Origin: an uncultured Odoribacter sp.
Lineage (GTDB): Bacteria > Bacteroidota > Bacteroidia > Bacteroidales > Marinifilaceae
Direction: 5' to 3'
NCBI GenBank assembly: GCA_902461525.1
Contig: CABPYD010000001.1
Coordinates: 246,835-310,834, forward strand
Length of the DNA stretch: 64,000 bases
Below the pieces are notes generated by a model. It did not search any database. It was not told the origin of the DNA and saw only the letters and a program-made list of their open reading frames with translations. Position numbers and translations under genes: made by a program. Positions 55,494 through 64,000 of this stretch are shown piece after piece (positions within the stretch are counted from its first letter, which is position 1; every line of letters begins with the position of its first letter).

Positions 55494-58400
55494 ATGAAGT
55501 ACTTTTCATTTATTTTGTTGTTTCAATTTGCAGTCTGGAATACTTATTCTGCGGATATCATCTTGTTTGAAGTGGGAAAACGGGATAGTTCAGCAGCTGA
55601 ATTTGCTTTATTCCCGGATCGGTATAAAAGTTTTCTGGCAGCTTTCGGCGGGGAAAAATCTTATTATGTCGGTTATTCATTACCGGAGAAAAACTGGCCT
55701 TATGTTTTGCCTGGGCCTCAGGATTCTTGGGCAGGCGGGGGATACTGGGCTGGTTATTATCCGAGGCATTTCCCTTCCTTGTATTTTCAGTTGGATAAGA
55801 CGGTAAAACAGGGAGATTGTCGGTTTGTGCTTTACTTTGCCGGGGCAAAGAAAAGTCGGGAGACCAGGATTCGCATTGAAATCAATGGGCATCGTTTTGA
55901 ACAGTCGATTGAAGGAGAGGATACGGAGGAGGTGTTGAATGGGAAGGTGAAAACCGGAGTATCCCGGGAAATTCAGCTGATTTTTCCGGTAAACTGGCTA
56001 CAAAAAGGAATAAACCGGATTCGGCTAGGGGCCGTAAAAGGACATTGGGTGTTAGTGGACGCTATGTGCCTGGAAGTTCCTGCAGGGGTACGTTTGGGAA
56101 AAGCTTCGGCTATTTTAGTACGTTCTGTTCAGGCTGCTCCTTTTGAATATGCGGGGGAAGATGACAAGCGGATTCAGCCTTTGCTGGTGGATATGACGAA
56201 ATTGGATCAATCGGGGGAGCTGACTTTCCGGGTGGATGGATTACCCGATCTGGTGCGTAGGGTAGAAAAGGGAGAGAGTATTCAGGAAATCCCCATGCCT
56301 GCACTGAATGGGGAAAAAGCCACCCGAACCCGTAAAATACGGATTTTTGCAGGAAAGGAACAGGTGTTTGAGGGATATATCACTCAATCCCGTCAGCCGC
56401 TTCATACTTATTCAGATAATGTCGATCTATTGATGGGTACTGGTAACTCGCGTTGGATGTTTAAGCCGGGTCCTTGCCTGCCGTTGAGTATGGTACAAAT
56501 TGCTCCTGATAATCAGGATGAAACATGGAAGGCTGGTTATGAATATACGGTGGAGAATATCATGGGGTTTAACCATATTAGCGATTGGACCATGACGGGT
56601 TTCCTGATGCAACCTACTTGTGGGGAATTGCAGGTGAATCCTGGGCGCGAGGAGTTTCCGGATGAGGGGTACCGTTCGCGTATTGATAAATCGACAGAAA
56701 AAGCAGAAGTAGGGAAATATTCGGTTTTTATGACGGATACGAAAATCAGGGCCGAGATCACCTCTACGCGCCGGGCTGCCATTCAGCGCTATACTTTTCC
56801 GCAACGGGAGGATGCCCGTATTATCATTGATTTATTTGCTCCTAATGAATATCCTCACAATTTGCTGGATGCTAAAGTGACTCGGGTCAGTAATACGGAA
56901 ATTGAAGGATATGCGACTTATTATAATGCTTTTACCGGTTATTCCCTGCAACAATATTATACGCTTTATTTTGTGTTGCAATTCAGTAAACCTTTTGACT
57001 CTATGGGGGGGTGGGTGAATGAAGGCGTGAAACCAGTAAACGGATATATAGGCGGATGGAACCGGAATCATCAGTTTGATACGCCGGCGGAAATTCATTT
57101 ACAGCTAGATAGTATCCGGGGAAAAGGTGATGCCGGGGTATTTGTGAACTATCGGACTACCGAAGGCGAGCAAATTCTGGTCCGTTCGGGTATTTCACTG
57201 GTAGATATGAATGGAGCACGTCATAATCTGGAACAGGAACTGACCGGACCTTTTGGATGGGATTTTGACCGGGTGGTAGAAAATGCCCGTTCTGTCTGGA
57301 ATGAGTATCTGGGCCGGGTGGAAATCAAGACAGACGATTATTTACAAAAGAAAAAATTCTATACTAATTTTTATCGGGCTTTGGCTGCTAAAGCAACCTG
57401 GAGTGATACAGATGGACGTTTCAGAGATGAGGACGAACAGATTTGCCGGTTGGAGAGTCCGGACGATTGTATTGTCAGTGGGGAATATTGGAATACTTTT
57501 TGGAACAATCAGCAATTATTCAATTTGGTGGCTCCGGAGATTTCTTCGAAATGGGCACGTTCAGCTATTCGTTTATATCAGAATAGCGGTTGGTTTAATA
57601 CGGATCCTGCCGGGGTTGAACATACAGGAGTGATGGTAGCTATGCATCCTATCTCCCAGATTTTAGGAGCTTGGCAAAGCGGTATCCGTGATTTCGACTT
57701 AGAGATTGCTTATCAAGGATTGCGGAAAATGATGACTACTCCTCCCGAATGGTACAAAGGGGGAGGAACGGTAGGAGTAGAACATTTGGTACCTTACATG
57801 AAATATGGGTATATCCCTTACGGTAAAGGGACTGTTTCCAATACAATGGAATATGCTTATGATGATTGGTGTCTGGGACAAATGGCGCGGATATTGGGAA
57901 AAGATGAAGATTACCAGGTGTTTGATCAACGTTCGGAAAATTGGATGAATTTGTTTGACCCGCAAACGGGTTTTATCCGTCCCAAAGATTCCGAAGGACA
58001 TTGGATTGAGCCGTTTGACCCCTATCATACTCCGGGATTTACTGAAGGAAATGCTTTTAATTATTCGTGGTTTGTACCGCATAACCCGTGTAAGCTTATT
58101 CAGCTGGTAGGACAAGAACGTTTTGTGGAGCGTCTGAATCGTGCTATGGAACAATCAGCGCATGCTAATTTTAATGCTGCGGGAGATAATTTTGCTGAGT
58201 TTCCCATCAATCATGGTAATGAAACATCAATGGAGGTGGCCTGGCTTTTTAATTGGGCTGGTAAACCGCATTTAACACAAAAATGGGTAAGGGCTATCCA
58301 GGAACAGTATTACGGGGTGACACCTTATGATGCTTATCCTGGTGATGAAGATCTGGGACAAATGAGTGCCTGGTTTGTCATGAGTGCGCTTGGACTCTTT

Positions 58401-58661
58401 CAGCTGGATGGAGGATGTGGGGCTGAACCCGCATATGAGTTGGCTGCTCCGCGTTATCCGGAAATTACGATCCATTTGAAAGGAAAGTATGGTCGGGGAG
58501 AATTATTTACGATAGAGGCTCCCGGTGCGTCGGCAGAAACAAAATACATTCGTTCGGCTCGATTGAATGATAAACCCCTTAGCAGTTTCCGTATTCCCCA
58601 GCAGGAAGTTCTGAAGGGCGGCAAACTGGTATTGGAAATGGTTAATAAAGGGAATGATTGA
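55494..58661 (+). CDS. GH92-like glycoside hydrolase (alpha-mannosidase family fold) with about 300-aa N-terminal extension, secreted
   Basis: The signal peptide is MKYFSFILLFQFAVWNTYSA. 'MGTGNSRWMFKPGPCLPLSMVQIAPDN...GYEYTVENIMGFNHISDWTMTG' parallels GH92 'GTGGHGHTFPGATVPFGMVQLSPDT...GFSHTHLSGTG'. 'GDEDLGQMSAWFVMSALGLFQ' parallels GH92 'G.ED.GQMSAWYV.SA.GFYP'. Confidence 0.55.
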   Translation: MKYFSFILLFQFAVWNTYSADIILFEVGKRDSSAAEFALFPDRYKSFLAAFGGEKSYYVGYSLPEKNWPYVLPGPQDSWAGGGYWAGYYPRHFPSLYFQLDKTVKQGDCRFVLYFAGAKKSRETRIRIEINGHRFEQSIEGEDTEEVLNGKVKTGVSREIQLIFPVNWLQKGINRIRLGAVKGHWVLVDAMCLEVPAGVRLGKASAILVRSVQAAPFEYAGEDDKRIQPLLVDMTKLDQSGELTFRVDGLPDLVRRVEKGESIQEIPMPALNGEKATRTRKIRIFAGKEQVFEGYITQSRQPLHTYSDNVDLLMGTGNSRWMFKPGPCLPLSMVQIAPDNQDETWKAGYEYTVENIMGFNHISDWTMTGFLMQPTCGELQVNPGREEFPDEGYRSRIDKSTEKAEVGKYSVFMTDTKIRAEITSTRRAAIQRYTFPQREDARIIIDLFAPNEYPHNLLDAKVTRVSNTEIEGYATYYNAFTGYSLQQYYTLYFVLQFSKPFDSMGGWVNEGVKPVNGYIGGWNRNHQFDTPAEIHLQLDSIRGKGDAGVFVNYRTTEGEQILVRSGISLVDMNGARHNLEQELTGPFGWDFDRVVENARSVWNEYLGRVEIKTDDYLQKKKFYTNFYRALAAKATWSDTDGRFRDEDEQICRLESPDDCIVSGEYWNTFWNNQQLFNLVAPEISSKWARSAIRLYQNSGWFNTDPAGVEHTGVMVAMHPISQILGAWQSGIRDFDLEIAYQGLRKMMTTPPEWYKGGGTVGVEHLVPYMKYGYIPYGKGTVSNTMEYAYDDWCLGQMARILGKDEDYQVFDQRSENWMNLFDPQTGFIRPKDSEGHWIEPFDPYHTPGFTEGNAFNYSWFVPHNPCKLIQLVGQERFVERLNRAMEQSAHANFNAAGDNFAEFPINHGNETSMEVAWLFNWAGKPHLTQKWVRAIQEQYYGVTPYDAYPGDEDLGQMSAWFVMSALGLFQLDGGCGAEPAYELAAPRYPEITIHLKGKYGRGELFTIEAPGASAETKYIRSARLNDKPLSSFRIPQQEVLKGGKLVLEMVNKGND

Positions 58662-58813
58662 TGTGAGGGGGATAAATTTTTGTTTGTGGAGAAGCACTAA
58701 AAACTGTTTTAAAATCATTTAAATTCTGTTTTTTGTGAAAGTTTGTTTAGTTTTGATTCCGATAAATTGCCTTTTGCAGAAGGTTGTTTTTAAACCTATT
58801 TATTTTATTGGAA

Positions 58814-60199
58814 ATGAAGAACTATAAAGTGATTACAGTATTACTATTATTGTTTGCCGTTTATGGGGCAAACGCCCAGCAAGGCTTTGTACATGGACGT
58901 TCGTCGGAATACGTGTGGCCGGAAGATCCGCAAGTAAGGGAAAAGCTGGACCGCTGGCAGGATCTGAAATTCGGGGTGCTTTTACATTGGGGATTGTATT
59001 CTGTTCCCGGTATTGTGGAATCCTGGTCGATATGTTCGGAAGATGAAGAATGGATTCCCCGGGATAGTACTATCGCTTATGAAGATTATAAAAAATGGTA
59101 TTGGGGATTGATCGACCAGTTTAATCCTGTGCGGTTTGACCCGGAGCAATGGGCCAGAGTGTCTAAGGATGCGGGTATGAAATATGTTATTTTTACAACC
59201 AAGCATCACGATGGTTTCAATATGTTCGATACTAAGCAGACTGATTTTTCAATTGCTCATGGTGCTTTCAAGGATAATCCCCGTAAAGATGTAGCAAAAT
59301 ATGTTTTCCAGGCTTATCGTGATCAGGGATTTATGGTAGGGGCTTATTTTTCGAAACCCGATTGGCATTCTGAATATTATTGGTGGCCACGTTATGCTAC
59401 AGGCAGTCGGAATGTAAATTATAAAATCGATAAACATCCGCAGCGTTGGGCTGCCTTTCAGGAATTTACCTTTAACCAGCTTAGTGAACTGATGCACCAT
59501 TATGGTACATTGGATATTCTTTGGTTGGATGGTGGTTGGGTTGCTCCCGGGCGTCAGGATATTAAAATGGATAAAATAGCTGCTATGGCCCGCCAGTCCC
59601 AGCCAGGTTTGATTATGGTGGACCGGACTATTCATGGAAAATATGAAAATTATCAGACTCCTGAACGTTCTATACCGGAAAAGCAACTGCCTTATCCATG
59701 GGAAAGTTGTATTACATTGGGAGTAGATTGGGGTTGGACGCCTCATGCTAAATTTAAATCATCGCAGGAAGTGGTGAATATGCTTATCGAAGTGGTGGCC
59801 AAAGGGGGGTGTTTGCTTTTGGGGGTGGGACCTACGCCTGAAGGTGTTATCCAGCCCGAAGTGGAAGAACGGCTCAAGGCCATTGGTGCGTGGTTGGAAA
59901 AGAATGGGGAAGCGATTTACAATACCCGGATAACTCCCGTATATCAGAGTGGACAAGTGTGGTTTACAGCTGCTAAGGATCAGCATACTCTTTATGCCAT
60001 GTATGCGCTGCCTGAGGGAGAACAAGTTCCTGCTGTCATTGAATGGGAAGGCAATGTTCCCCGGAAAGGGAGCCGGATGATTTTGTTGCAAACCGGGAAA
60101 TCGGTAAAATGGACTAGTCAGGGAGAAAAAGTGAAAGTGTATCTTCCGAAATCCATACTGAAGAATAAGGAGGCTGTTGCCTTTTCTTTTACAAAGTAG
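58814..60199 (+). CDS. GH29 alpha-L-fucosidase, secreted
   Basis: The ORF opens at a TTG (58784). The ATG at 58814 gives MKNYKVITVLLLLFAVYGANAQ. 'LKFGVLLHWGLYSVPG' and 'TKHHDGFNMFDTKQTDFSI' are GH29 motifs. Confidence 0.75.
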   Translation: MKNYKVITVLLLLFAVYGANAQQGFVHGRSSEYVWPEDPQVREKLDRWQDLKFGVLLHWGLYSVPGIVESWSICSEDEEWIPRDSTIAYEDYKKWYWGLIDQFNPVRFDPEQWARVSKDAGMKYVIFTTKHHDGFNMFDTKQTDFSIAHGAFKDNPRKDVAKYVFQAYRDQGFMVGAYFSKPDWHSEYYWWPRYATGSRNVNYKIDKHPQRWAAFQEFTFNQLSELMHHYGTLDILWLDGGWVAPGRQDIKMDKIAAMARQSQPGLIMVDRTIHGKYENYQTPERSIPEKQLPYPWESCITLGVDWGWTPHAKFKSSQEVVNMLIEVVAKGGCLLLGVGPTPEGVIQPEVEERLKAIGAWLEKNGEAIYNTRITPVYQSGQVWFTAAKDQHTLYAMYALPEGEQVPAVIEWEGNVPRKGSRMILLQTGKSVKWTSQGEKVKVYLPKSILKNKEAVAFSFTK

Positions 60200-60208
60200 A
60201 TTAATAAA

Positions 60209-60240
60209 AATAATCCCTTTGATTAAATCAAGGGATTATT
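60209..60240. terminator. Bidirectional terminator hairpin between convergent GH29 and FadL-like genes
   Basis: The hairpin aataatcccttt-gattaaatc-aagggattatt is flanked by an A-run upstream and ttttgtt downstream. Confidence 0.6.
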
Positions 60241-60247
60241 TTGTTAT

Positions 60248-61753
60248 TTAAAACCGTACACCTAAGGTCAGGCGGGCTTCATTGTCATAATACTTATTTG
60301 TAACGGGCAGAGAAGTAAATACCTCGTTATAGAAAGGATTGACACCTGAATAGAAATAGGTTACATCCTTCGTATATTTGTGTATATAGGCAGCATCACA
60401 ATAAAATACTCCGAAATTCAATCCCATTCCGGCTGTAATGGCATGGATTTGATTGTTTTTCTTATCATTTTTATAGGGGCTGGCCTGGAAATTATAACCT
60501 GCACGTAAGCTGAATATACTGTTGAAACGATATTCGGTGCCAAGCCGTATGTTATGGGTGGACCGCAATAGATCTTTCATATCCTGATTCAGCATGTAAT
60601 AATCAGCTCCGTCGTCAGCATCACTATAGTTGGCATTGGTGTAATCGATGTATTCATAGTCTGCACTTAAGATGAAACGTTGTTGCAGGACTGTTGCTAA
60701 GCTCACTGTAGCCCGCCAGGGGGTACGCATACTGTAGTCGAAAGAATAATCTCCTGTAAAACTATAGTAATCATTGAGCAAACCGATTTCAGAATCTGTA
60801 GCCCAGTAAACGGCTCCGATGCCAGCGCTGTAGTTGTAATTCAGGTTATACCAGGTTGGGGTATGGATAGAGGCTCCGATACGTAATTCGGGGATAGGAC
60901 GGTAAATTACTCCGAACGTCAGATTAGTACCTACTCCATTGATTTTTATATGTTTATCATATTGAAATGCATCCAGATACAGGGATAGACTTTCATCGGC
61001 ATATTCTGTATATGAAGATTTGTATTTGTAATATAAGGACTGAATTCCGATACTCATTCCAAGATATAATTTGTCTTTGTAATTAGTTCCGAACGAGAAT
61101 GAATATTCTCCCTGATATCCTTCTTCTTTAGTTGTTTGCCATTGGGCTACAGGAGCGTTGAATATATTGCTGTTTTGATCTTCAACTTCCAGAATGGAAA
61201 AATAATCATTGTTTTCATCTCCGGGAGGGAGGTAAATCAGCTTGGTTTTATAAGCCAGGGCACTTTCCAGATACATATCCGGACTATCAGGGGACAATCC
61301 GTAACTGTCGAAAGCCCACACATTCGTGATGGAGGTAGTAGAATAGCCGATCAGGCGGTCAGTTTTTTTATTAAAATTGTTGAGATTTGTATAATTAATC
61401 CCAAAATTAATCCCTTTCCAATCGAAATTGGGAGAATAGAAACTGAAAACAGCCCCTAGTTGTCCTACCTGAAAGGAGTTTTTGGAAATTGAACCATGTC
61501 CGGATTCAATGTGGCTGAAATTCAGGGAAGGGGTAAAAGCGATCTCAGATTTCCGGAATACTCCGACTCCTGCCGGGTTGGTATTTAAAGAAGATATGTC
61601 ACCTCCCAAAGCTCCGAACGCTCCTCCCATGGCTGCCGACCGGGCACTTCCCAGATTTGAGGTCCTGGAGAATTTTACAGCTTCATCTAAACTCTGGCTA
61701 TATGCCCAATTACTAAGTAGGAGTAAGGCAGATATGATATATAGTTGTTTCAT
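60248..61753 (-). CDS. Outer-membrane beta-barrel protein, FadL/TodX (OMPP1)-like family
   Basis: The signal peptide is MKQLYIISALLLLSNWAYSQ. The N-terminal hatch-like motif 'GSARSAAMGGAFGALGGDISSLNTNPAGVG' parallels FadL '[25 protein letters not shown]'. Alternating aromatic/beta composition runs to a C-terminal Phe. Confidence 0.45.
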   Translation of the reverse strand: MKQLYIISALLLLSNWAYSQSLDEAVKFSRTSNLGSARSAAMGGAFGALGGDISSLNTNPAGVGVFRKSEIAFTPSLNFSHIESGHGSISKNSFQVGQLGAVFSFYSPNFDWKGINFGINYTNLNNFNKKTDRLIGYSTTSITNVWAFDSYGLSPDSPDMYLESALAYKTKLIYLPPGDENNDYFSILEVEDQNSNIFNAPVAQWQTTKEEGYQGEYSFSFGTNYKDKLYLGMSIGIQSLYYKYKSSYTEYADESLSLYLDAFQYDKHIKINGVGTNLTFGVIYRPIPELRIGASIHTPTWYNLNYNYSAGIGAVYWATDSEIGLLNDYYSFTGDYSFDYSMRTPWRATVSLATVLQQRFILSADYEYIDYTNANYSDADDGADYYMLNQDMKDLLRSTHNIRLGTEYRFNSIFSLRAGYNFQASPYKNDKKNNQIHAITAGMGLNFGVFYCDAAYIHKYTKDVTYFYSGVNPFYNEVFTSLPVTNKYYDNEARLTLGVRF

Positions 61754-61777
61754 GTTATTGAAATTAAATGGTGTCGT

Positions 61778-63391
61778 TTATCTTCTGGTTGGTCGGTGAA
61801 CTGCACCGCCTCCGCCTCCACCTCCACCTCCACCACTGCTCCGGCTGGGAATATAACTGCCTCTGCTGCCAGATGAACCGCTACTTCGGGAGGGAGTATA
61901 ACTAGAACCGCTGGACGAACTTCTGGAAGGTATATAACCGGACGAACTATTATTATTGTAGGTCGGGCGGTAACTACTCTGTGGCCGTGAGTAATTTTTT
62001 ACATTACTGGAAGAGCTTGTCCGGCTGGCTGGCCGTGAATATTGGCTGGTGTTGGGTCTGCTAGATGGCCGGGTAACTGAAGTGCCCGGACGGGTTGTGG
62101 TTCCCGGACGGGTAACGGTTGCAGGTCGGGTAGTTGTACCCGGACGGGTAACCGTACCATTGGGGCGGGTGGTGTTGTTACCAGGTCGTGTAACCGAAGT
62201 GCCGGGCCGTGTTGTTGAATTATTTCCGGGTCGGGTGATGGTGACTCCTGGCCGCGTTGTACTACCCGGTCGGGTTACAGTACCATTAGGCCGTATACTA
62301 CTGTTTGTCCCGGGCCGGGTCACTGTGCTGCTATTGGGGCGGGTAGAGGCACTTGTATTCGGGCGGATGTTACCCGGACGTACGGAACCGGCATTTGTAT
62401 TTCCTCCGGAAGGACGGTTAGGCCGTATACTTCCCGCAGTACCTCCTCCGCTATAACTTGGACGCAAACCTGTAATTGGACGGGGACGATTTCCGGAACC
62501 ATGACCACCACCCCAGCCAGGGTGATCCCAGTGGTGATGCCAATGAGGGTTATACCATCCCGGATAGTAACCAAACCAAGGGTTGTACCACGGACCATAC
62601 CATGGGTCGTACCAGCCATACCAGTTATACCATGGATCATACCATCCGGAATTCCAGCCGAATCCGGCATGCCATCCTCCACTCCCCCAGCCGAATCTGA
62701 AACCCCAGTTGCCACGGCGGTTGAAGCTGGCATCGAAAGCATAGCTGTCAAAACGTGGGTTATTCCATATGACTGTCCAGATATATTTGGGGTAGGTGCC
62801 AAAGAGTAAAGAAGAATAGAGTTCAATATTCGAGTTGGAAGGGAACCACCACAGACGTCCATTATCGGTGTATACGTTCCAGTCCGGATCGAAAGACAGA
62901 TTCATGGCAATATCGTAACCATTTGTGTTGAAGGAAGCAAAACCTTCGGGATATAAATTTATAATCCGCTGGATTTCTTCCAGATCGTTTTCGCTTCCTT
63001 TAAAACCTCCGATCCAATAACCTGTGTTTTCATATATAGTGGCGTTGATCTTTTCATTGTTGGCCAGCATATTTTCAGCTTGGGTTGTTAATGCCGCCAT
63101 ATCAACATTTTCTAGTTTACCGGTTTGGCTATTGATCACTTGTTGTTTACTTTGGGTGAATGCTGCCGGTGCAATGCTGCTTCCCTTTGCATGGGAAACT
63201 TCCTCAGGATAAGTATCGGTTTGAATTGAACTACTGATTTCTTGTCCGGTTAAATTTTCCACTTCTTTGACCATTAACGCTTTTTTCCCCGGGACATAAT
63301 AAATATCATCCTCCATGGTGAAGCTTCGGTTCGTGGAGCAAGATATTGCCGTGAGGGCAATAATTGCTGTGTATAATGCCAGATATCTCAT
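61778..63391 (-). CDS. Low-complexity repeat lipoprotein: structured N-terminal domain (~290 aa), W/Y/P/G aromatic block, ~15 (T/S)xTRPG repeats, Ser-rich YxPSRSS repeats, Gly10 tail
   Basis: The lipobox is 'IALTAISCS'. The aromatic block reads 'GWYDPWYNWYGWYDPWYGPWYNPWFGYYPGWYNPHWHHHWDHPGWGGGHGSGN'. Repeats such as 'TVTRPGSTTRPGVTITRPGNNSTTRPGTSVTRPG...' follow. The C-terminus reads 'GGGGGGGGGGAVHRPTRR'. It sits 24 bp upstream of the FadL-like gene on the same strand. Confidence 0.6.
   Translation of the reverse strand: MRYLALYTAIIALTAISCSTNRSFTMEDDIYYVPGKKALMVKEVENLTGQEISSSIQTDTYPEEVSHAKGSSIAPAAFTQSKQQVINSQTGKLENVDMAALTTQAENMLANNEKINATIYENTGYWIGGFKGSENDLEEIQRIINLYPEGFASFNTNGYDIAMNLSFDPDWNVYTDNGRLWWFPSNSNIELYSSLLFGTYPKYIWTVIWNNPRFDSYAFDASFNRRGNWGFRFGWGSGGWHAGFGWNSGWYDPWYNWYGWYDPWYGPWYNPWFGYYPGWYNPHWHHHWDHPGWGGGHGSGNRPRPITGLRPSYSGGGTAGSIRPNRPSGGNTNAGSVRPGNIRPNTSASTRPNSSTVTRPGTNSSIRPNGTVTRPGSTTRPGVTITRPGNNSTTRPGTSVTRPGNNTTRPNGTVTRPGTTTRPATVTRPGTTTRPGTSVTRPSSRPNTSQYSRPASRTSSSSNVKNYSRPQSSYRPTYNNNSSSGYIPSRSSSSGSSYTPSRSSGSSGSRGSYIPSRSSGGGGGGGGGGAVHRPTRR
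62049..62456 (-). repeat. Degenerate tandem coding repeats (6-8 codon units encoding (T/S)xTRPG) inside the lipoprotein gene
   Basis: The periodicity is visible in the protein and in mirror ORFs on both strands (GRVTVP / GRVVVP repeats in the + frame). Confidence 0.6.
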
Positions 63392-63451
63392 ATACTTTAT
63401 TTTTTTATATATATATCAAAAACTATACCAAGAGTCATGGAATAAAAATAA

Positions 63452-64000
<549 letters not shown>

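Follow-up and report, generated by a model that had tools for sequence, protein, structure and literature searches.

The β-barrel assembly machinery (BAM) of Bacteroidota contains an essential FadL-like barrel, named BtBamG in Bacteroides thetaiotaomicron and FjBamF in Flavobacterium johnsoniae, and a surface lipoprotein (BtBamH or FjBamG) that wedges its conserved N-terminus into this barrel (PMC12578637; bioRxiv 10.1101/2025.02.17.638638; 2025). A FadL-like subunit with a lipoprotein is reported to be universal in Bacteroidota (bioRxiv 10.1101/2025.02.17.638638), and B. thetaiotaomicron encodes a paralogous barrel-lipoprotein operon, Bt1785/Bt1786 (BamG2H2), to which no role has been assigned (PMC12578637). 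Such pairs were recognised as core Bacteroidota envelope machinery only in 2025. Here we describe a second, apparently unrelated barrel-lipoprotein pair, found in a 64,000-nucleotide stretch from an uncultured Odoribacter sp. (GenBank assembly GCA_902461525.1, contig CABPYD010000001.1, positions 246,835 to 310,834 of the forward strand; hereafter the window). An open reading frame (ORF) on the minus strand (61778..63391, read from 63391 to 61778 and closed by a TAA stop) encodes 537 amino acids, and is best explained as the gene for the lipoprotein subunit of a two-gene outer-membrane module with its own FadL-family barrel. The barrel gene lies 24 nucleotides downstream and is the most informative fact absent from the original prediction. 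All residue numbers and counts refer to the 537-residue product unless another protein is named, and all features of the two genes lie on the minus strand.

The pair resembles BamG-BamH of B. thetaiotaomicron and Porphyromonas gingivalis (BamF-BamG in F. johnsoniae) in combining a 14-stranded barrel of the FadL family with a lipoprotein that has a conserved N-terminus, and, like Bt1785/Bt1786, it appears as a two-gene operon. However, the barrel exceeds BtBamG by about 100 residues and shares only 15% identity with it. Unlike BamH, the lipoprotein lacks an export signal and any sequence or fold similarity to solved chains, and it ends in an aromatic and cationic disordered tail of about 310 residues, of a kind not described for BamH. 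A search of the PDB, BAM complex entries included, found no fold similarity of the lipoprotein to the solved BamH or BamG subunits. The pair is fixed in a clade that includes the common human gut commensals Odoribacter and Butyricimonas, and its lipoprotein joins a fold without a solved relative to a tail of about 310 residues whose composition has stayed constant while its sequence drifted. This suggests a cell-envelope module not previously studied, best filed among the Bacteroidota barrel-lipoprotein modules as one that occurs in a single clade and whose lipoprotein has no known fold and an unusual disordered tail.

Modular organisation of the lipoprotein

The hydrophobic N-terminus (residues 1-18, 63338..63391) forms a predicted signal peptide with the lipobox MRYLALYTAIIALTAIS-C18, ending in LTAIS-C18. 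The cysteine is invariant in 37 of 37 aligned homologues, with S, A or G at position -1, and by these features the protein classes as a bacterial lipoprotein and a predicted substrate of signal peptidase II. Shortly after the lipobox comes the peptide EDDIYYVPG (residues 27-35, 63287..63313), in which D28, Y31 and P34 are invariant and E27, D29, I30 and Y32 are at least 90% conserved in the same alignment. The peptide begins at +10 from the lipid-carrying cysteine here and most often at +12 across the family; of 135 distinct family N-termini, 121 have the EDD start between +10 and +13. Its predicted local distance difference test score (pLDDT) is below 50 in the monomeric AlphaFold2 (AF2) model, and we infer that it is a docking or sorting peptide. 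A weakly conserved acidic linker of about 85 residues follows (residues 36-118, 63038..63286); it is gapped and variable in the alignment and partly of low pLDDT, and residues 19-120 have a pI of 4.7.

The conserved core of about 105 residues (residues 119-224, 62720..63037) is recognised by the pattern GYWIGGFKG...YPxGF...DWNVYT...RYWWFPS...N..LY...G.YP, and in the AF2 model, built from the 37-homologue alignment, residues ~80-225 form an α/β unit at pLDDT 70-86. The core has no sequence match and no fold match in the PDB; the single match of its profile in the sequence search (E = 0.67) was judged spurious. The lipoprotein as a whole reaches no Pfam or NCBIfam family above cut-off, and its sub-threshold matches (P30 and Se-dependent xanthine dehydrogenase) were discarded as compositional. 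What the original prediction took for an ordinary domain of about 290 residues breaks down into the signal peptide, EDDIYYVPG, the linker and a novel core, and the view that the whole architecture lies outside characterised families is upheld by these searches. The N-terminal part, comprising the lipid-carrying cysteine, EDDIYYxP and the core, is under sequence constraint.

From residue 225 the protein consists of low-complexity modules. The first is an aromatic block rich in W, Y, G and P with a His-rich end (residues 225-300, 62492..62719), densest over the 65 residues 236-300 (GSGGWHAGFGWNSGWYDPWYNWYGWYDPWYGPWYNPWFGYYPGWYNPHWHHHWDHPGW...), where there are 13 W, 9 Y, 7 H, 16 G and 7 P. The second is a polycationic tract of (T/S)x(T)RP(G/N) repeats (residues 301-452, 62036..62491) with 22 R, 22 P, 33 T, no D or E and a pI of 12. 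It holds 22 RP dipeptides about 6-8 residues apart, with 9 exact TRPG and 16 RP[GN] occurrences. The third is a Ser-rich YxPSRSS region (residues 453-537, 61781..62035) with 28 S, three Y(I/T)PSRSS units, ten consecutive glycines at residues 520-529 (61805-61834) and the C-terminus AVHRPTRR (RPTRR, 61781-61795). The residue counts bear out each of the elements first noted here, namely the lipobox, the aromatic block, the basic TRPG repeats and the Ser-rich region with its glycine run, as well as the description of the tail as strongly basic. Against the amino acid frequencies of the other long ORFs in the window, the probability of at least 13 W in 65 residues is 2e-9, and that of no D or E in the 237-residue tail is 3e-13.

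The same composition recurs throughout the family. Taken over 82 intact members, the median aromatic block is 75 residues long and 43% W, Y, F or H, and the tail after it has a median of 184 residues, with median K+R of 31 and D+E of 1. Tail length is 78-243 residues in 81 of these members, the remaining one being mis-segmented, and 72 of the 82 end in RR. The family tails do not align in the 37-homologue alignment, and the aromatic block has a pLDDT of about 33 in the AF2 model. Across the C-terminal ~310 residues it is thus composition and order that are conserved, not sequence, which is the signature of a functional disordered region. The basic tract of the window protein is 14% Pro, and the gene adjoins that for prolyl-tRNA synthetase, an adjacency kept in 76 of 87 loci.

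The end of the aromatic block is His-rich family-wide: its last 35 residues hold a median of 6 His, compared with 1 for the rest, and 85 of 98 members have 4 or more there. The corresponding sub-module here, HWHHHWDHPGW (residues ~265-300, 62492-62600), recalls metal-binding His/Trp/Gly/Pro repeats. It might be a metal- or pH-responsive element that binds Cu, Zn or Ni or senses pH in the manner of the prion octarepeat, with the rest of the tail as a spacer. The family-wide enrichment would fit such a role, but tracts rich in His are widespread and of low specificity, the locus has no metal-transport genes linked to it, and the polycation and the barrel would be left unexplained, so that we hold this to be very improbable.

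Two described repeat families share part of the tail's character. Cytadhesin P30/P32 (PF07271) has Pro-rich basic repeats, but its match of 15.8 bits (cut-off 40) covers the RP-repeat tract only and was rejected as compositional. YXWGXW proteins (PF12779) have aromatic-Gly envelope repeats, and no match to this profile was found at E ≤ 1. Several further ORFs overlap the repeats and were rejected as genes: 62049-62456 (+), a 135-residue antisense ORF with GRVT/PGRV repeats, mirrors the TRPG codons, and 62320-62862 (-), 62501-62809 (+) and 61999-62160 (-) are frame artefacts.

The partner barrel

The gene directly downstream (60248..61753) encodes a protein of 501 residues that is assigned to the FadL/OmpP1/TodX family by its profile score and predicted fold. 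It scores 35.4 bits against Pfam Toluene_X (PF03349, cut-off 29.7), and its AF2 model (pLDDT 85, pTM (predicted template modelling score) 0.80) is a 14-stranded barrel. The best Foldseek match of the model is BtBamG (9hiv_F, E = 1e-16, 15% identity); E. coli FadL matches at E = 2e-15 with 11-12% identity, FjBamF (9n2d_B) and PgBamG (9hjm_F) are also in the top 14, and the best matches are all 11-15% identical. Target-normalised TM scores are 0.57-0.64 against FadL and TodX and 0.61-0.67 against FadL and BamG. The NPA motif of the hatch is intact, N59 and P60 being invariant and A61 at least 90% conserved. In passing the Pfam threshold, keeping this motif and having the same predicted fold, the partner is like the FadL, TodX and TbuX channels; unlike them, it is paired with a lipoprotein, and it is larger and only 11-13% identical to them. 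The roughly 100 residues by which it exceeds FadL or BamG probably lie in extracellular loops. The hatch region as a whole (within residues 20-66 of the barrel, GSARSAAMGGAFGALGGD...NPAG) is highly conserved. The 'Q-rule' of Bacteroidota describes mature ends that carry pyroglutamate, and the invariant Gln20 at the predicted mature N-terminus of the barrel fits it.

In 84 of 87 loci the gene that directly follows the lipoprotein gene downstream, on the same strand, is the barrel gene; the three exceptions are contig ends. The arrangement is kept from gut Odoribacter to marine Ancylomarina with similarly short gaps. In the window the 24-nucleotide spacer (61754..61777) gave no terminator-like site in a terminator scan. 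The two genes are probably co-transcribed, and we infer that their products form a complex. The two reading frames are in register (60248-63391), separated only by a single TAA and 24 nucleotides (TTPFNFNN), so that read-through of the lipoprotein stop would yield a fusion of 1047 residues; this is probably a coincidence.

Since BtBamG is the best structural match, with FjBamF and PgBamG also in the top 14, the pair might be associated with BAM or resemble it. The barrel would then be paralogous to BamG/BamF, and the lipoprotein would take the place of BamH in this clade, serving the biogenesis of outer membrane proteins or lipoproteins; BamG2H2 would be the comparison. BamG/BamF subunits are marked by orthology to Bt4367 and by a conserved N-terminal extension of about 10-12 residues that passes through the lateral opening. 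The barrel-lipoprotein operon of B. thetaiotaomicron and the reported universality of such subunits (both cited above) lend this some weight. However, the identity to BtBamG is no better than that to E. coli FadL, the barrel is longer, and the barrel family profile finds no BamG chain at E ≤ 10, though BamG chains are present in the PDB copy searched. The lipoprotein, for its part, is without an export signal, unlike BamH-K, and has no structural match even among BAM entries. A BAM-like role is on this evidence doubtful.

The relation to FadL and TodX suggests a different role, in which the lipoprotein would be an accessory of FadL-type uptake. In it, the aromatic block would serve to catch or pass on substrates of a hydrophobic or amphipathic nature (fatty acids, quinones, sterol-like or bile compounds), or as an anchor at the membrane interface, and the basic tail would keep the complex attached to anionic lipids. 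The Toluene_X score, the retained N59-P60(-A61), the superposition on FadL and TodX and the strongly interfacial or hydrophobic character of a segment that is 43% aromatic are all in keeping with this. However, the characterised FadL, TodX and TbuX channels, to our knowledge, act without a dedicated lipoprotein partner, neither fatty-acid genes nor genes of aromatic catabolism are linked to the locus, where proS and tRNA-modification genes are the neighbours, and a long polycation has no obvious role in hydrophobic transport. We therefore regard an uptake accessory as unlikely.

A single-sequence search of the PDB with the barrel gave no match, and the barrel family profile gave weak matches to PorV and TbuX only (FjPorV at E = 1.3e-3). 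An identity as PorV or PorQ of the type IX secretion system (T9SS) was rejected on NCBIfam scores (PorV_fam 50.2 bits versus 90, PorV 26.5 versus 250, PorQ 28.5 versus 220). A relationship of the T9SS cargo or PorV type was likewise rejected: the PorV-family scores do not reach their cut-offs, the protein is a lipoprotein, and no T9SS C-terminal sorting domain was recognised.

Distribution of the family

A word-indexed search returned 94 relatives, of which all named ones are annotated as 'hypothetical protein' and come from Odoribacter, Culturomica, Odoribacteraceae and Marinifilaceae. An exhaustive hidden Markov model search with the core profile, run against 1.84 billion representative proteins, yielded no more than 38 clusters: 32 at E ≤ 2e-10, three short fragments and, as the three weakest, unrelated repeat proteins. 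Scanning one genome per species gave 78 loci, each returned genome record having a single one. The genera are Odoribacter, Butyricimonas, Culturomica, Gabonibacter, Sanguibacteroides, Marinifilum, Labilibaculum and Ancylomarina, which the NCBI taxonomy places in Odoribacteraceae and Marinifilaceae. The loci with other labels are a few metagenome-assembled genomes named 'Bacteroides sp.' (one), 'Marinilabiliaceae bacterium' (one), 'Bacteroidales', 'Bacteroidetes' or 'uncultured bacterium'. O. laneus, O. lunatus and Ca. O. faecigallinarum are among the 78 loci; a record of O. splanchnicus was not returned.

The family is small, clade-restricted and uncharacterised. Its plan is a lipobox, EDDIYYxP, a core of about 105 residues, an aromatic block of about 75 residues whose end is His-rich, and a polycationic tail that closes with RR, and the most distant members (35-45% core identity) retain it. 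Even if its function proves to be an ordinary one, the family merits a name and a profile, given that its members are now only 'hypothetical protein'.

Periplasmic or surface orientation

[quoted passage not shown] Of the 135 distinct family N-termini, 129 are free of D and E at +2 to +7, and the other six have a single such residue. No N-terminus reaches two, so that all 135 are without the canonical export signal, which places the family outside the LES-bearing, surface-exposed class. With no export signal the lipoprotein is expected to face the periplasm, and by the current rule we think this somewhat more probable than the opposite orientation. The surface location suggested by the original prediction is accordingly disfavoured.

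A surface-exposed lipoprotein would have a tail that binds lipopolysaccharide (LPS) core, capsule, extracellular DNA or host or algal glycans, or that acts as a spacer, with export through the barrel or by means of the EDD. Several features would suit it. In many Bacteroidota barrel-lipoprotein pairs, such as SusCD and BamG-BamH, the lipoprotein is outside; an invariant acidic EDD lies near the N-terminus; repeat-length polymorphism is typical of exposed proteins under diversifying pressure; and the extra barrel residues, probably extracellular loops, could hold the partner. On the other side stand the missing export signal in every N-terminus, together with the experimental finding that displaced signals impaired export, and the occurrence of the family, in gut and marine genera alike, as a single housekeeping locus for each genome record returned, which argues against a niche ligand such as mucin. 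The role in binding mucin or host glycans that had been proposed is improbable on the same grounds, as the gene pair and its housekeeping locus are kept in the free-living marine Marinifilum, Labilibaculum and Ancylomarina. We judge exposure at the surface to be rather unlikely.

A possible envelope tether

The model that we tentatively favour, as a possibility only, is that the module is a flexible, non-covalent tether or spacer from the outer membrane to the peptidoglycan, built on a FadL-type barrel. Docking on the barrel would be through the EDDIYY peptide and the core, in a way comparable to BamH, whose conserved N-terminus is wedged into the FadL-like BamG. The lipoprotein would most probably be anchored in the inner leaflet of the outer membrane and extend into the periplasm, where its disordered tail would work like velcro, binding an anionic glycan polymer or surface at many points; peptidoglycan is the likeliest such target. 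Its aromatic residues may stack on sugars or lie at the membrane interface, and its arginines may bind carboxylates or phosphates. Binding of polyanions by the tail, as first proposed, is a reasonable expectation from its composition. By our own estimate from general polymer scaling, a Pro/Gly/Ser/Thr-rich polycation of 237 residues would have an end-to-end reach of roughly 10-15 nm, which suits the gap between outer membrane and wall.

A number of points weigh against this model. Scans with Pfam and NCBIfam found no OmpA_C, Pal, LysM or SPOR domain at E ≤ 1 in the lipoprotein. The intact NPA hatch motif is one found in FadL-family barrels that are normally transporters, and a pure tether leaves it unexplained. 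The periplasmic orientation is taken from a single sequence rule derived in other genera, and export might still be signalled by the conserved EDD at +10 to +13, in a displaced or partner-dependent form, or be mediated by the partner barrel itself. Polyanions besides peptidoglycan are possible ligands, among them LPS, anionic lipids, capsule and DNA. Finally, a mirror-tree comparison of the core and the outer membrane protein gave r = 0.78 but a partial r of 0.12 given ProS, so that the correlation between the core and barrel trees is explained by phylogeny. The mean distances are 0.48 for the lipoprotein core, 0.55 for the barrel and 0.17 for ProS, the core and the barrel evolving about three times faster than ProS.

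Like Lpp, Pal and the C-terminal domain of OmpA, the protein described here would be anchored in the outer membrane, as a lipoprotein long enough to reach the wall, and its basic C-terminal residues recall the terminal Lys of Braun's lipoprotein Lpp. Unlike them it has no coiled coil and no OmpA_C or Pal fold. Since its terminus is Arg-Arg, not Lys, covalent linkage by an L,D-transpeptidase is unlikely, and any binding to the wall would, unlike that of Lpp, be non-covalent, multivalent and mediated by the disordered region.

The chemistry of the tail has parallels elsewhere, with no homology implied. Indolicidin (ILPWKWPWWPWRR), tritrpticin, PR-39 and Bac7 are Trp-, Pro- and Arg-rich antimicrobial peptides of 13-60 residues that bind LPS, anionic membranes and nucleic acids. 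The tail shares with them W-P-W and R-P composition and a terminal RR, but here this chemistry is spread over about 310 membrane-tethered residues and is not that of a free peptide. Eukaryotic low-complexity 'sticker-spacer' domains include FUS-like Tyr/Arg regions, FG-nucleoporins and the prion octarepeat PHGGGWGQ. By analogy, the tail conserves composition and sets aromatic and Arg stickers among Gly, Ser, Thr and Pro spacers, and its His/Trp/Gly/Pro cluster resembles the octarepeat; unlike these domains, it belongs to a bacterial, extracytoplasmic, lipid-anchored protein. An envelope organiser of a kind not recognised before, which would rely on such sticker-spacer disorder and neither on a folded domain nor on a covalent bond, either as a wall tether and Bacteroidota counterpart of Braun's lipoprotein or as a condensate or brush that gates the mouth of the barrel, is conceivable, though we would give it little credence.

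Functional disordered regions in the bacterial periplasm and outer membrane have barely been studied, and a literature search on disordered cationic outer-membrane lipoproteins and on outer membrane vesicle proteomes of Odoribacter found nothing specific. The family, which may also bear on non-transport roles of FadL-type barrels, offers natural length alleles that make the binding of a disordered region to wall, LPS or lipids tractable.

Length variation in the repeat modules

The original prediction had raised both length variation between strains and a collapse or chimera in the assembly of the repeats. Independent assemblies from ENA and Logan encode the identical 537-residue protein on 24 contigs or more, which excludes a one-off repeat collapse or chimera. 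This exact protein is common in human-gut assemblies.

Variation in length was found as expected. The 90%-identity cluster of the window protein has 30 members, and of the 15 listed, from which variant lengths were taken, 12 are full-length, at 531-555 residues. The folded part is nearly invariant in the cluster, and every indel falls inside a low-complexity module. The aromatic block varies by one WYDP unit and an 8-residue deletion, the TRPG tract by 13-residue and 23-residue indels, and the C-terminal region by a 12-residue YxPSRSS unit and by poly-Gly alleles of G6, G8 and G10. At the DNA level the repeats of the TRPG tract are degenerate (period 18/36, 71-81% matches), and there are further tandem units of 12 nucleotides in the aromatic block and 6 nucleotides under the poly-Gly, to which the WYDP and poly-Gly steps correspond. 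Because alleles differ by whole repeat units, the gene fits the repeat-length-polymorphic (contingency-like) class.

Three rare variants (P0249-P0251; 405 and 467 residues) are frameshifted in the TRPG tract and lack the Ser-rich end; they may be truncated alleles or sequencing errors. The 467-residue variant enters the alternative frame seen as ORF 61999-62160 (-). These three are what might suggest an artefact or a decaying gene, with mis-assembled repeats or neutral low-complexity expansion. However, all other indels in the cluster are in frame, the identical protein recurs in the independent assemblies, and architecture and composition are kept across the 82 intact members down to about 35% core identity, which makes such an explanation extremely improbable.

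Gene neighbourhood

The locus is a housekeeping neighbourhood. The gene for prolyl-tRNA synthetase (proS) is divergent upstream in 76 of 87 loci, and in several taxa the block extends into miaB-like, spoU and folP genes. In the window the 5' part of proS, recognised by Pfam families on the called gene, occupies 63518..64000 (+). A 126-bp AT-rich spacer (63392-63517) is shared between it and the lipoprotein gene, with a near-match to the Bacteroidota -7 promoter element (TAGTTTTTG) about 30 nucleotides upstream of the lipoprotein ATG. A sigma-70 promoter scan found sites no commoner than in shuffled sequence, with a model not suited to Bacteroidota, and an Rfam scan of 60000-64000 found no match.

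On the other side of the module, where relatives have miaB-like, spoU and folP, the window has a GH92 gene and an α-L-fucosidase gene (55494-60199, +; Pfam Alpha_L_fucos, E = 9e-98). This suggests a glycan-utilisation insertion or rearrangement beside the conserved module. The fucosidase ORF has 471 residues from its listed TTG start and 461 in the called gene. Between the convergent ends of the barrel and fucosidase genes lies a hairpin with an 8-bp stem and a T-run (60216-60234), which from its sequence looks like a shared terminator.

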